Source: Schmidtea polychroa (lineage: Eukaryota). From it: a stretch of DNA of 64,000 nt. Positions 16,401 through 34,400 of the stretch are shown here, one piece after another. The stretch spans positions 40,610,001 through 40,674,000 of the forward strand of contig CM097886.1 in the NCBI GenBank assembly GCA_044892525.1, given 5' to 3'. The position numbers and the translations under genes are program-made. The notes beneath the pieces were generated by a model. That model was not told the origin of the DNA. It made no database searches and saw nothing but the letters and a program-made list of their open reading frames with translations. Position 1 is the stretch's first letter. Every line of letters begins with the position of its first letter.

Positions 16401-19400
16401 CTCATTTAGATTTATTTCCCGTATTTTCTGATGTAGCTCCTTGGCCTGATTATTACTGATTTCTATTCGGTTTATTTGCATCTTTATGTTTGCTCGGGCT
16501 TCTTCGAACGCTTCCCTTTCTTCTAGTAGTTCTTTGACTAACACTTTCAACGATGTTATCTCTATCTCCATTTGTTTTACTTTCTCTTCGCTTTCTCGTA
16601 ACGCAGTCGACCACATTTCTGCGTGAGTTGAAGCATTTTCTACTAAATGATGTGGTAACTCACCTCGGTGTAGTAATTTCTGACAACCCCATCTACCTAG
16701 TACACATGTCATTCTTTTCTTTTCGCATTCCCTTAGATGCTGTGCCACCTTCATTATTTCCCCTTGGTTACATCCGTTTGGGCATTCCCCACTGAACTCC
16801 GCACATACTCTCTCCTCTTGGACATTGTGATGTTTGAGGGTGAGATTTATCCACGTATCTATTTCTCCACAGTGTTCACATCTTTCCAATCTCTCTTCAC
16901 ACTGCCTTTGATGCTCTTTTTCTTCGCTTGCTCGAATGGTTTTATGGCACCTTTCACACTGGCCAATTCTGTACATACATTCTCCCATATGTTGTACTAC
17001 CTTCCATATTACTCCTTTCCATTCGCATGGGGCATTTTTGCATCCCAGGTTGGTGTTTAACATGTCTTTCACTGCGGCTTTATCCTCGTTAGTGTCTTCT
17101 AAACTCGATATTAGTGTCTCTTTGCACACCGGGCACCTCTGTGGTCTATTCTTTATTGCTTCACTGATACATTCTTTACATGCTCGGCATCCACATTGCG
17201 TTTGGTGAGGTTCCTTTAACAACTTTTCACATATTCCGCACATAACATGTTTGTGTATTCTGATCGTTGTAGATTTTCGGACTTGCTCGACAATCTCTCT
17301 GAACTCTTCTCTTTGTCGTTTATCCATTCTATAATTATACGTACAAATAGTTCTTATCGATACAGGTTCGATATTTTATTTACAATTATTTACATTTTGA
17401 GCTAGGTTTGGTTTAGGGTTCGGAAGAGTCGGCTTCGTGTCCGCTCTCCTCTCTATTCATTAGCCATTCCGACCAGTCTTCTATTTCTATCTGTTCTGCT
17501 TCCTCCCTCATTCGGTCTATTTCAATTTCCTGTCGACGGCTATATTGGGTTATCCTCTCTATTTCTCTTTGCATTTGTTCGATTTTTAACCTCTGGTCTT
17601 CAATTATCTTCAAATAACTAAATCCTCTGTTCATACTCTCGATCAGGTTTCTGTGCATCGTCAGTCCTTGTTCTTGCAAATTGGACACTAATTGTGCTAA
17701 TACGGCGCATTGTTGCTTCCATAATTCTTCAGTTACTGTATTGGGGTTCATTTCGCTATTTCCTTGATCCATTCCTAATTTATATACACTTTTCAACTCT
17801 TATGTAAATTTAATTTTATTTTGTGATTCCCGTTATTGTATAATATTGATACCGCGCTTATATAAAGATATAGTACTGTTATATACATAAGATATACTTA
17901 CTTTTTACAATTATATACAGTCATATTCCTTTCTATATACGTGAGTTTGGAGGGCGCTGAGTGTTCCAGGCCTCCACCCACTGTTCTTGTTTGATATCAC
18001 TTGGTCGTTTCACTCGATGTTGGAAATTTCTGATTCGGGTCATCTCTAGTTCTCCGCGATGTCGTTTATCTTTGATTATTTTTATTGTTCCCCCCGTTAT
18101 AATTAGGAAGGCCCCTGTTATTATTATCCCACTGATCCACATCATCTGCTTCACGCTTATATTCTCTGGTTTCTCCTTGTTCGTTAATGTTGATATCGCT
18201 TCTATGCCTTTCTCGTTTCCTCTTTTGCCATTTCCTTTCATCATTTCCCGTATTCTTGCTATTTCCTCGTTCATACCCTCCTTTGCCATCTTTTGTATTT
18301 TTTCCATCTCTTCCTCCGAAACATAGTTGTCCTGAGCTTCCTCGCCGGTTTTCTTGTGCTTTCCTCCTTCGTCCTTTTCGTCGTGGTTTTTCCTTTTCTT
18401 TCCTCTTTTCCCCGGGTATCGTCGGCATTCTCTTTTTGATTCGTTTCTCCAGATACAAACCGTATATTCCTTCGGGGGCTGCTGCTGCGTCACATATTGA
18501 TGGCATCTCTCACCCGGTCCTAATCTTGAAATACAGACTTTGTGCTCTTTTCTTGGTTGGAGCTGCGTTATTACTACTTCACCACCTTTTCCTAGGTGTA
18601 CCTCTTTTCCTTTGACGTTCGTTATTCTCTTCCCGTCTCGGTTTCGGTATGCTTCTTGTATTCTTACTTCTGTTATTGGTTCTGTGTCCTCATTTATCAG
18701 TACTAGTTTCTGATACGCTCTAGACATGCATCTTCCTAGTATGCACCTTTCCTTTAAGTCCCATTCTTCCTTTAAATCCCACTGCTGCTCTTGTGCTTGC
18801 TTTTTCTTTTCTTGTTTTAGTTCATCCTCTTTGCTATCTTGATTCTCCGCTTCTTTGGTTTCTTTTATCGTTCTCGTCCCTCCCTGAGCTGTTACTAACT
18901 CTATCATGGTAAGCATAATTATCATTAATATCATATTTGTCTCTATTTCTTTGTTAGTGAAAGGTAGGCATACCCTCTGTTTTCCATTATTCGATTTTTC
19001 CTCCTCTTTGGTCTTAGTTCCCGGGCTGTTTCCCTCTCTTTTCGTATCCGAATCCTTGTTTTCCGGTTTACCCTCCTCCGGTTCTCTTTTCTCTTTATCC
19101 TCCTTTCGGCCTTTTCCGTTATTGTCATCGTGTTTATCTCCCCCGCTGTCGTTTAAAATGTCGTCCTCGACATTTATATCGTTCAATAATCTGCGATATG
19201 CTGTTAGCACTCTGTTTCTTGCTAATTTTGCTTCGAATTCAAACTCCTTCCTGCCCGTTGCAGCATGCCTCTTTCTATTCCATTCTTTAACTAACTCTCT
19301 CAATTGCATACAACGATGTTTCCCAATTCGTTGTTGCTCGTTCTGATTTTGCGTGAATTTTAGGTCTTCTCTATTTAATACTATTAAAATAATTTTAGGC

Positions 19401-31400: not shown

Positions 31401-34400
31401 TTTCCATTCATTGCTTTCTTCGCTAATCTCCGCAATTCACTGGCATATAGTGTTATCGATTCGTTTGCTCTTTGTTTCCTATTTGCTAGTTCGCCCAACG
31501 CCTGGTTGATTGGCTTACTGGCTCCGAAGGTTTTCTTCAGGAATGTTTTAATATCTTCCCACTTTTCTAATTTCGTGTCTCTCTCTTTAGCTTCTAAATA
31601 TACCTCTAATGCACTGTCGCACAAAAACAACGGCATCCTTTTACTAATTGCTTCGGGTGTCCATCCACACACAGTGATATAAACTTCAAAATTAGTTATG
31701 AACGTTGCTAGCTTGTTTGCATTTCCGTTGAACGGTTCTCCTCTGAACTTCTCTTTATACTCGTCGGTTTTTACGACATTCGTCATGATTGGTGTTCTAG
31801 GTTCGTCTGTTTCTTTTAAATTGTCTAACGATGTGACTAAACTTTGGGCTGATAATTCCTCGGTTGACGTTGCTAAACTATTAGTGATATCGGACAGACT
31901 TTCTCTACTTCGAGATCGACTAGGGGTATATCCGAGATTTTCTTGGTCAAATATGGGTACTTGATTAGTTCTTCTGGATCCTTGTGATATTCCTCTTTGA
32001 TGTTTAATGGATCGTCCTCTTTTGAGTTGTTGTAATTCGTCTCCTGAAAATAATACGTCTCCTGGCTTACTTGAAGATCTAAGATTGGGTTTATCCGTGA
32101 TTCCTTTCTTACGCTTCTTGGTAATTAGCGGCTATTGAATTGGTCGCGTTCGGTTCTGATTGTGTTTCTAATCCTTGGCAGATGGCTGCTAATACTTCTT
32201 CCGTTCGGGAGTCTTCCGGTTGCTGTGTCTCTCGGTGCGGGTTCTGAATGGATTTATCCTTGGTTGATTGTCGATTTCTTCGAATTCCTTTATGCAGGTT
32301 CTGGATTGTCTTGGTTGGCTGGATTGGCTTGATATCTAAAATGAAAAAATGATCTCGTGTTGCATTTGCTTACACGACTTCATCATTCTTTCTACAACAT
32401 TCAAAAACAGACGCCTTTTAGGTTTCTGTTTGTGCTTCCCCTATCTTTTGTGAAATCCTTTCTGCGGGTTATAATATCCCATCAGCCCGTATTTTCCGTC
32501 GATTTTAAATTATCTATATGGGGTAGTAACAATTATCTATAAAGTCGTAATAATTATCTATTCGTTATCAATTATAGTAAAAATAGGTCGTTGTCGGTCT
32601 CTGCTTATTACCCCCCTTTCATTTTCCTAATCCTTTTGCGCTGTTGTCGCTATTTTACTTTTCATATTCACTATTATTACGCTCGGTTCTACTCTGGAAC
32701 CAATAAAATGCATTTTCCCGGTTTAACCAAAAAAAATATTCCGTAGAGTTTCTCTACTTCACTGGGATCCCTTTAATTAGTTAGTTACTTTCCTCTTTAC
32801 TCATTATCATCGTTTCATCTATTCTTTATTTTCTATTATCTCTTTAATTCGTTTCCTTCTTCCCTTTCCTTTTTCATTATAATCCTATTTTCTTTTCCAC
32901 GAGCTCGTTTATTTCCTCTCTAAACTCGAATTTTCAAAATTACATTCAATTTGTTCTAGCTAGCTTTAATATTCCATATCACTAGTAATTTAAATATTAT
33001 CTCATTGTAGCTTAACTGCTATCTCTCGCTTTTCTAGGCCTTTACGACTGGCTGGCACTATTCAACAGCTCAATCTTCTTCCTTCTGATCGGTTGGACTA
33101 TTCAACAACTCGATCTTACGACTGGCTGGCACTATTCAACAGCTCAATCTTCCTCCTTCTGATCGGTTGGACTATTCAGCAACTCGATCTTACGACTGGC
33201 TGGCACTATTCAACAGCTCAATCTTCCTCCTTCCTGATCGGTTGGACTATTCAACAACTCGATCTTACGACTGGCTGGCACTATTCAACAGCTCAATCTT
33301 CCTCCTTCCTGATCGGTTGGACTATTCAACAACTCGATCTTACGACTGGCTGGCACTATTCAACAGCTCAATCTTCCTCCTTCCTGATCGGTTGGACTAT
33401 TCAACAACTCGATCTTACGACTGGCTGGCACTATTCAACAGCTCAATCTTCCTCCTTCCTGATCGGTTGGACTTTTCACAACTCGACCTTACGACTGGCT
33501 GGCACTATTCAACAGCTCAATCTTCCTCCTTGACCGGCTGGATTATTCGACAGCTCGGCTTTAATATTCCTCGCTCTGCATGCTTCTATTTCTCTTTTCT
33601 TCTTTTACTCTAGTTTACCATTTTCTCTATCTACTTTTAATTTGTCGACTTAATCTTTACCGCTTGGGAGTGTTTCCCCTTTTCCCCCCTTGCTCAAAAC
33701 GCACGACGATCGCGATGATCCATTTCTACATTGGCATGGTGATCAGTCATGTCGCAAAAACTTCTCATCATATGCGATGGTACCCCGCCCTACGCTTCTT
33801 ACTTGGGTTGATCAGTTATCCCCTCCCAACGGGTTCTTGCAATAAGACGTACCGCCCGAAGGTGGCTCGGTTTGTACCCCTGCAGTCTATATTGGGACTA
33901 ATTCCACGTTATTCAACCCTCTCTTCATTTGATTCCGAAAAAAAAATTAAAACAAAACAAACACGCAAATATTCATTCGTCATGCAAATTTTATTAGTCC
34001 TAATCATCAAAACTTTTTAAAGACGGATTTATTTATCCTAAACATAAAGATTGAATCATTAACAGTACGTGTTACTTCAACAATTTCATGCATTCTTGTT
34101 CAAACATCGTATACTTGCTGTTACATCGCCGGCCGTTTCATTCGCCATAATAGACCATATGGGTCTCTTTTATTTCATATTTGCACATCGTGCATCTTTT
34201 TAGGTCTTTTACACACGCTTCACAGTGACTGAGGTGTCCACACGGCAAGAATAATACGCGAATAGGACGGAGTTTGCAGGCTATACAAGTTCGTAATTGG
34301 TTAACTTTTTCCTGTATTTTTTGTTCGATTGCATCTGGTACTGTATTTAGTGAGTCTTTTAGACGCTGATAATCTAGATTTAATGTTGGGTGGTTCAATC

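Follow-up and report, generated by a model that had tools for sequence, protein, structure and literature searches.

The stretch of DNA analysed here, referred to as the window, comprises 64,000 nucleotides from Schmidtea polychroa (GCA_044892525.1, contig CM097886.1, positions 40,610,001–40,674,000) and contains a complete long terminal repeat (LTR) retroelement of 30,301 bp on the minus strand (8775–39075). All features of the element given below lie on this strand. The element is flanked by the 4-bp target duplication GTAT and is bounded by a 5′ LTR (34966–39075) and a 3′ LTR (8775–12884), each of 4,110 bp and of the TG...CA type, with 1 mismatch in 4,110 bp between them. The primer-binding site (34941–34958) is complementary in 18/18 positions to the 3′ end plus CCA of the host tRNA-Pro(TGG). 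These features, together with the Pfam order protease (PR), reverse transcriptase (RT), RNase H (RH) and integrase (IN) and a top PDB match to Ty3-G Gag-Pol (1.9e-162), identify a member of the Ty3/gypsy elements (Metaviridae).

A single stop-free open reading frame (ORF; 17933–31786) encodes a polyprotein of 4,617 amino acids, counted from the first ATG. The directly observed order is Gag, ubiquitin-like (Ubl) stretches, a Bcl-2-like domain, a putative internal signal (SP1), an envelope ectodomain (Env), a transmembrane segment (TM1), PR-RT-RH-IN (Pol), ankyrin repeats (ANK), a second putative signal (SP2), a second ectodomain (gp2) and a second transmembrane segment (TM2). Gag, which has no Gly2 at its N-terminus, extends from a capsid domain (aa 52–145; Retrotrans_gag, 3e-9) to three CCHC knuckles (aa 252–303; zf-CCHC, 8e-10) at 30878–31633. 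The Env ectodomain (25274–26935) is a class III fusion protein of the chuvirus/gB type (PF24664 Monjiviricetes_fusion, 2e-70) with 14 cysteines, R-E-K-R at aa 1862–1865 and 1 sequon. It is followed by the Pfam-defined Pol domains at 21716–24598 (protease aa 2397–2488, RT 2710–2868, RNase H 2931–3060, integrase 3168–3357) and by ankyrin repeats at 19613–20863 (aa 3642–3721 and 4019–4058; Ank_2, 1e-17). Within the polyprotein, the Pfam cut-offs are passed by the Gag, CCHC and Monjiviricetes_fusion matches, by the four Pol domains and by the ankyrin repeats.

The remaining two domains are less distinct. Two weak ubiquitin-like stretches (28100–29299) match Pfam ubiquitin and PI3K_rbd, each with an E-value of 0.005 and below the cut-off. 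The Bcl-2-like domain (27050–27640) of the window alone gives an E-value of 0.037, again below the Pfam cut-off, and no match in the PDB. A profile of seven relatives matches almost exclusively Bcl-xL and Bcl-2 structures (best E-value 0.003), and Pfam Bcl-2 is detected in 4 of these 7. The late-domain motifs PPxY (aa 1018) and YPxL (aa 2355) were set aside because their positions are not conserved across 13 proteins.

The whole polyprotein was scanned for hydrophobic segments with Kyte-Doolittle and biological-scale values. On the biological scale the top four 19-mers and the top four 12-mers are the same four segments, at aa 1602–1620 (nt 26983–26927), 2178–2196 (25255–25199), 4285–4303 (18934–18878) and 4548–4566 (18145–18089). 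They are the alternating signal and transmembrane segments already marked, at the same coordinates, in the first-pass annotation. Four segments have a dG14 of 0.6 or lower, compared with a mean of 0.5 in shuffled sequences, and 2 of 300 shuffles reach four; this result is indicative only, as the threshold was chosen post hoc to equal the weakest segment's score. SP1 (aa 1596–1617; 26936–27001) has a predicted cleavage site A-T-G|F-T-I-Y-D-C and SP2 (aa 4283–4300; 18887–18940) a predicted site V-T-A|Q. TM1 (25181–25273), the best segment on both scales, has an uncharged run of 21 residues (aa 2172–2192) and is hydrophobic up to residue 2202, while TM2 (18074–18148) is an uncharged run of 22 residues followed by a basic tail of 46 aa. 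Two more patches, absent from the first-pass annotation, are moderately hydrophobic. The first, aa 1507–1525, is the central, buried helix of the Bcl-2-like domain and probably does not cross the membrane. The second, aa 2212–2230 (H5; 25097–25153), is a short, conserved patch which follows K/R residues behind TM1, is predicted to be re-entrant or amphipathic, and decides the parity of the crossings.

We consider it probable, at about 70%, that the chain is threaded four times through the endoplasmic reticulum (ER) membrane and that signal peptidase cuts behind both internal signals. The products would be a membrane-anchored Gag-Ubl-Bcl-2 protein, an Env protein with a cytosolic PR-RT-RH-IN-ANK tail, and, as a third protein, a type I glycoprotein. 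The cytosol would hold Gag and Pol, and the lumen the Env and gp2 ectodomains. The same placement, with Pol at first tethered, had been proposed in the first-pass annotation; it is inferred, and it gains from the conservation of the segments, from an insertion of even parity in one relative and from the shortness of H5. Threading is likely because all four segments are also present in distantly related elements, a conservation which is observed directly.

Five polyproteins of 2,855–4,029 aa were obtained when the Env region was used to look for longer relatives, a search that favoured long Env-bearing proteins and not the module behind the integrase. All five of these long database homologues carry signal-Env-TM, Pol and signal-ectodomain-TM in one frame. 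A homologue search with the whole protein found none, and none of 125 candidate viral contigs contained an Env relative. Of five metagenome loci, L011 is identical to P0004, and L012 and L015 repeat the four-segment layout. In the species' own genome (G000; 781 Mb, four chromosome-size contigs) compact sister families were examined in seven stretches, five of which (L016–L018, L020 and L021) hold all four segments in one frame. A BIR-carrying family of this genome has SP1, an identical TM1 and a weaker SP2 and TM2, with SP1 and the other three segments located in separate stretches or in broken frames. The 13 proteins represent about seven lineages, between which RT-RNase H identity is 48–76%. 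The detailed comparison covers 11 proteins, which are related and not independent rows; P0003, L020 and L021 were omitted as near-duplicates, and L032 has no SP1. Excluded from the counts were L023–L028, located on the wrong side of the BIR gene, L033, with broken Gag frames only, and the fragments L014 (no frame of 150 aa) and P0007.

Several properties of the segments are shared by these proteins. In 10/10, SP1 carries small residues at -3 and -1 in the same place of the alignment, and this site precedes a conserved D/N-C by four residues; the same number have 14 cysteines in the Env ectodomain. Net positive charge is found before SP1 in 8/10, before SP2 in 10/11 and behind TM2 in 10/11. The uncharged run of H5 has just 9–10 residues with a central proline in 11/11, which is too short to cross, and the dG19 of H5 is +5 to +8. 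Sequons in gp2 exceed expectation (54 observed, 31.9 expected), compared with 104 and 94.6 in the cytosolic part. The module behind the integrase is in frame with a signal-like segment in 13/13, which argues against separate expression, since this would not require an open frame.

The strongest single point for the topology, as judged from the sequences, comes from L012 (4754–5323), where an additional signal-ectodomain-TM module lies between Env and the main protease. The number of crossings would rise to six, still even, and as the module was gained as a pair of signal and TM, Pol would remain cytosolic. The extra module is related to gp2 of P0004 (E-value ~1e-5 in a 16-sequence set). Moreover, there is no methionine in the 80–115 residues before SP1 in P0002, P0003 and P0005, or in the 120 residues before SP2 in P0004, so that these signals must act internally unless a spliced leader provides a start. 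The state of the copies points in the same direction. With 1 mismatch between the LTRs and the full 4,732-codon frame retained in 38 of the 65 best-scoring protein matches of the genome, the window's copy included, the element is by its sequence an active one, and activity requires RT and integrase in the cytosol.

A number of observations weigh against this topology. SP1 and SP2 of the window are short and weak (dG19 +2.1 and +2.9), and SP1 ranks just 8th (1.27) among the Kyte-Doolittle 19-mers. SP2 of the window has no charge bias (0/-1). A signal that emerges only after 1,600 residues of a chain may target it poorly. Both signals are Met-led in the window, which makes separate initiation possible. 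TM1 is positively charged on both sides in 11/11, so that charge does not orient it, and in P0001 this segment is weak (dG19 +3.5). Sequons in Env are below chance, with 18 found and 34.3 expected. A -3/-1 site is found near SP2 in 13/13, but by a loose test that is often passed by chance. Additional patches rival SP1 in some relatives: in the compact families the Bcl-2 helix (dG14 -0.2 to 0.9), in L015 a stretch that precedes SP1 by 28 residues (-0.5), and in P0005 a stretch within a Ubl. Finally, some relatives depart from the single frame. In L013 a single in-frame TGA (3058–3060) separates the Bcl-2-like domain from SP1 and the frame stops within Env, P0006 breaks off about 70 residues behind H5, and L019 stops before TM2; each of the three may be a damaged copy. 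The TGA of L013 could be either damage or a readthrough stop that would give an excess of Gag.

An alternative, which we regard as unlikely, is that the main source of Env (with or without Pol) and gp2 is mRNAs that are spliced or started internally and have Met-led N-terminal signals, and that the full-length chain is for the most part an untargeted cytosolic Gag...Pol precursor serving ordinary retrotransposition. SP1, SP2 and the signal of an accessory ORF at 13113–13781 are indeed all Met-led in the window, and SP1 and SP2 are weak, but methionine is frequent throughout this protein (3.9%), and several relatives have none near their signals. The 3.2-kb leader, with 48 ATGs, contains several GT-AAG donor-like sites, and SP1 is preceded, at a distance of 180 nt, by one pyrimidine-rich acceptor; this single site compares with a background of 1.5 per kb, the 400 nt before SP2 contain no acceptor, and neither signal is preceded by an enrichment of acceptor-like sites. 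Foamy virus Pol and Env are a precedent for expression from spliced RNAs (PMC7828637). With subgenomic expression, however, no selection against a stop between integrase and SP2 is expected, yet the frame is open in 13/13, and in an untargeted chain TM1 would become the first strong signal.

Among the runs recorded as RNA, none contains the sequence of the element, and the matches listed for contigs of the presumed-RNA runs (X1, X6–X9) and of X3 include no GT-AG-type joint. A joint between 16418 and 17869 was rejected as a splice, as it has no splice ends and one side is 20 nt. The coverage of X6 and X7, clustered on gp2, was set aside because contigs cannot rank parts of a gene.

Somewhat less likely again is a hidden recoding event, in which a Gag-only product becomes dominant, for example through early polyadenylation, loss of ribosomes or a frameshift that runs into a stop behind Gag, leaving threading to the minority of ribosomes that read on. 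Five slippery-like heptamers in aa 234–683 each have a stop in the -1 frame no more than 53 codons downstream, but there are 17 such heptamers across a frame with 41% A and none is evidently special. One contig of run X6 has a loose poly(T) end at 29850, but this end lacks a preceding AATAAA and is followed by A-rich sequence, as in internal priming, and the TGA before SP1 in L013 comes from one contig. Recoding of this kind is compatible with the topology and touches the stoichiometry only. Most improbable is an odd number of crossings, with H5 or the Bcl-2 helix also spanning the membrane, Pol wasted in the lumen and functional Pol made by another route: H5 is present in all relatives, its Kyte-Doolittle 19-mer (1.31) exceeds SP1, its dG14 is ~1.0 in the compact families and some gB-type Env proteins are drawn with two TMs (PMC13524379), but its short, proline-interrupted run, the charge patterns of SP2 and TM2, which independently place the Pol end in the cytosol, and the parity-preserving insertion of L012 all speak against it.

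With fourfold threading through the ER membrane, Gag-Ubl-Bcl-2 (1,595 aa) would be synthesised in the cytosol before SP1, late in the chain, targets the ribosome. SP1 would be cut at G1617|F1618 and would stay as the C-terminal anchor of the Gag piece. Env would then enter the lumen and form 7 disulfides until TM1 stops the transfer, with H5 resting on, or dipping into, the cytosolic leaflet. Pol and ANK would fold in the cytosol, tethered at opposite ends by TM1 and SP2. Translocation would be reopened by SP2, and gp2 would be released with Q4301 as its N-terminus and anchored by TM2. Before protease action the predicted products have sizes of ~190, 310 and 37 kDa, with F1618 and Q4301 as the new N-termini. 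Clustering of Env could bring the protease domains together, which would free CA, NC, RT and IN.

In this scheme Gag and Pol would meet at the membrane instead of being fused as Gag-Pol, and packaging of Pol would follow incorporation of Env and not the 1:1 synthesis. The first-pass annotation had expected equimolar Gag, Env and Pol unless splicing adjusts the ratio. Equimolarity applies to synthesis from the full-length RNA, but not necessarily to packaging: signal peptidase would part Gag from Pol, so that 1:1 synthesis does not force 1:1 packaging. Splicing is thus not the only possible adjuster, because cleavage at SP1 would itself uncouple the two. Packaging at 1:1 could not fit in any case, since 540 PR-IN copies take up ~86,000 nm3 and a 40-nm capsid holds ~33,500 nm3 (capsid figures as for Ty3). 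Tentatively, it is possible that the Burro-type and GAG-ENV-POL relatives discussed below are enveloped viruses which package their enzymes through the envelope, with the retained signal of Env holding Gag at the membrane, Pol carried by the tail of Env, and a gp2 of the fibronectin type III (FN3) type for attachment. If so, membrane assembly would be required even for intracellular copying.

The ectodomain of gp2 (18149–18886) has 246 aa, 6 cysteines and 2 sequons, with one likely FN3-like unit at ~18440–18760. A profile of six gp2 units from the window, L032 and L012 matches fibronectin best (E-value 0.009, 6 of 10 matches). A low-confidence model of gp2 from a compact sister family (pLDDT 43) resembles FN3 arrays in Foldseek with an E-value of 6e-5 and a TM-score of 0.2. 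Pfam fn3 has no match in gp2, the A3 profile has no meaningful match among PDB sequences, and the single-sequence fold of the window gp2 is unusable (pLDDT 45). Taken together, gp2 is likely FN3-like in sequence terms, and a role in attachment is our guess. The window gp2 has no relatives among 1.84 billion representatives, and to judge by its sequence the ectodomain diverges fast. The insert of L012 is likewise FN3-like, and it appears to have arisen by duplication of a unit made up of a protease-like part and gp2. P0001, P0002, P0003, P0005 and L012 each have two or three aspartic-protease-like domains, of which one often immediately precedes SP2; the window has one.

The genome contains hundreds of candidate copies, and all 40 scored DNA matches are 99–100% identical. 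A shortened form, L022 (G000:C52:144500–154499), is without RT and integrase and has Bcl-2-SP1-Env-TM1-protease-like-SP2-gp2-TM2 in one frame of 1,433 codons. The tRNA-Pro(TGG) that serves as primer is encoded in a very large tandem gene array with a 475-bp unit (G000:C1:130901009 onward), and a 22-nt tRNA-Pro pattern has 2,164 matches in the genome. Each LTR contains an ORF of 250 aa with no Pfam match (35500–36252 and 9309–10061). Six 75-nt tandem repeats are present in the leader (33010–33533), five of them with GTAAGA donor-like sites. Outside the element, at 50491–52860, there are broken frames resembling a ZMYM/hAT-type transposase (DUF4371, 3e-11).

The polyprotein is accompanied by accessory ORFs. 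Upstream lies a RING finger protein of 161 aa (34138–34623; zf-C3HC4_3, 6.5e-11). Downstream are a TRAF-like protein of 462 aa with RING, zinc fingers and MATH (15939–17327; TRAF-mep_MATH, 3e-27) and a protein of 222 aa without a Pfam match, which has a Met-rich signal-like start and a TM-like segment (13113–13781). Three coiled-coil-like ORFs of 351, 232 and 119 aa, located at 13822–15745 and 17413–17772, belong to no confident family. The AT-rich spacers between the downstream ORFs contain the sense-strand pattern ATTGTAAAWA at four places (13792–13801, 14529–14538, 17377–17386 and 17902–17911). It could mark where separate transcripts of the accessory ORFs end or start; the window has 6 occurrences and 2.65 expected, for a pattern picked post hoc.

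The element is a Burro-type Ty3/gypsy element and a GAG-ENV-POL errantivirus, and thus a member of a known family. With the planarian Burro/GYPSM1 giant gypsy-like elements (PMC6431247) it shares a length of ~30 kb, LTRs, one polyprotein with Gag, three CCHC knuckles, Ubl, Bcl-2, PR-RT-RH-IN and ankyrin, TRAF and RING cargo, and the env in frame between Bcl-2 and protease, an arrangement already published there. The polyprotein falls within the Burro range of ~4,600–5,100 aa, and of the typical cargo ANK, TRAF and RING are above Pfam cut-offs, Bcl-2 is recognised through the profile and Ubl is weak. Unlike in Burro/GYPSM1, the 4,617-aa window protein has TRAF in a downstream accessory ORF and the upstream RING ORF lacks BIR (PMC6431247). 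The window element is not Burro1 in the narrow sense, which has a BIR-RING B-IAP gene and MATH inside ORF1; no BIR match was found in the ORFs scanned. BIR is present in the sister family of the same genome that has the identical TM1 and is 88% identical to the window in RT-RNase H, and which also resembles Burro/GYPSM1. Its BIR frame of 392–393 codons lies ~2.5 kb behind the polyprotein of this Burro1-like family in at least 150 copies. The Burro section of PMC6431247 is silent on signals, topology and processing, and on any second membrane protein. One Burro family member has been reported to support regeneration (as cited in PMC13465017).

Similarity to the HSV/gB-type GAG-ENV-POL errantiviruses of Platyhelminthes, Nematoda and Bryozoa (PMC13524379) is found in the gene order and in a gB/chuvirus-type Env between gag and pol, with signal and TM flanks and conserved cysteines. 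Chary and Hayashi (PMC13524379) describe six such Schmidtea elements, with signal and TM predicted around Env only. The window Env is closest to Smed_errantivirus_5, about half identical by eye over the first 60 residues shown there. The paper covers the Env ectodomain only; in its main text, figures excepted, "frameshift", "splic" and "single ORF" are absent, and neither a whole-chain topology nor a post-integrase module was found. The literature search as a whole returned no whole-chain topology, Pol tethering or post-integrase module; Sacco 2022, Grohme 2018 and Lee 2026 lay outside it and may describe signals or the second membrane protein, and the first of these reportedly describes a continuous gag-env-pro-pol ORF. 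Gene order and family are therefore already known, while the conserved, ER-threaded design with Pol on Env, as predicted from the sequences, would be new.

Atlas virus and the nematode belpaoviruses also have one chain with internal TMs and two glycoproteins. The Atlas virus chain is a stop-free Gag-Pol-Env with phlebovirus-like internal TMs and host cleavage sites (PMC9094657). However, its Env is C-terminal and its Gag-Pol forms one cytosolic chain, whereas in the window a lumenal domain would split Gag from Pol and place Pol between membrane modules. Atlas virus is a Bel/Pao element with a class II fusogen, unlike the window element with its Ty3/gypsy Pol and class III fusogen.

In nearly all LTR retroelements and retroviruses Pol is fused to Gag for packaging and kept scarce by frameshift, readthrough or splicing, and a lumenal Env between Gag and Pol would break this link. 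Tf1 has a single-frame gag-pol. Such a frame is not unusual in itself, as in DGLT-A (PMC6101501). Foamy virus Pol, too, is not delivered fused to Gag and depends on a packaging route of its own; its template is a spliced RNA, and its packaging goes through the genome RNA (PMC7828637), whereas Pol of the window would be the tail of Env. If envelope-mediated packaging is true, this would be a third route for Pol besides the Gag-Pol fusion and the foamy virus RNA route.

Alphavirus and flavivirus precursors consist of alternating signals and stop-transfer segments, are processed by signal peptidase and a viral protease, and are synthesised 1:1. A bunyavirus precursor, by contrast, contains only glycoproteins. 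The first-pass annotation had likened the chain to both flavivirus and bunyavirus precursors. The former is a fitting working analogy, with the capsid anchored by the next signal and the enzymes in the same chain, but implies no homology; the latter fits less well and is rejected as the closest analogue. None of the 17 Pfam matches is to a flavivirus or bunyavirus structural or replication protein family, and the resemblance is confined to mechanism. The alternation of signals and TMs and a capsid anchored by the next signal are common to the rubella, alphavirus and flavivirus precursors. In rubella the capsid retains the E2 signal as its membrane anchor (PMC3040668). These are positive-strand RNA viruses without homology to the window element, so that this too is an analogy of mechanism. 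By such analogy the closest working models are the rubella and flavivirus precursors and Atlas virus, not the bunyaviruses. If the topology is correct, a very abundant and active planarian family would assemble on the ER in the manner of a rubella- or flavivirus-type precursor, with an entry set of two glycoproteins.

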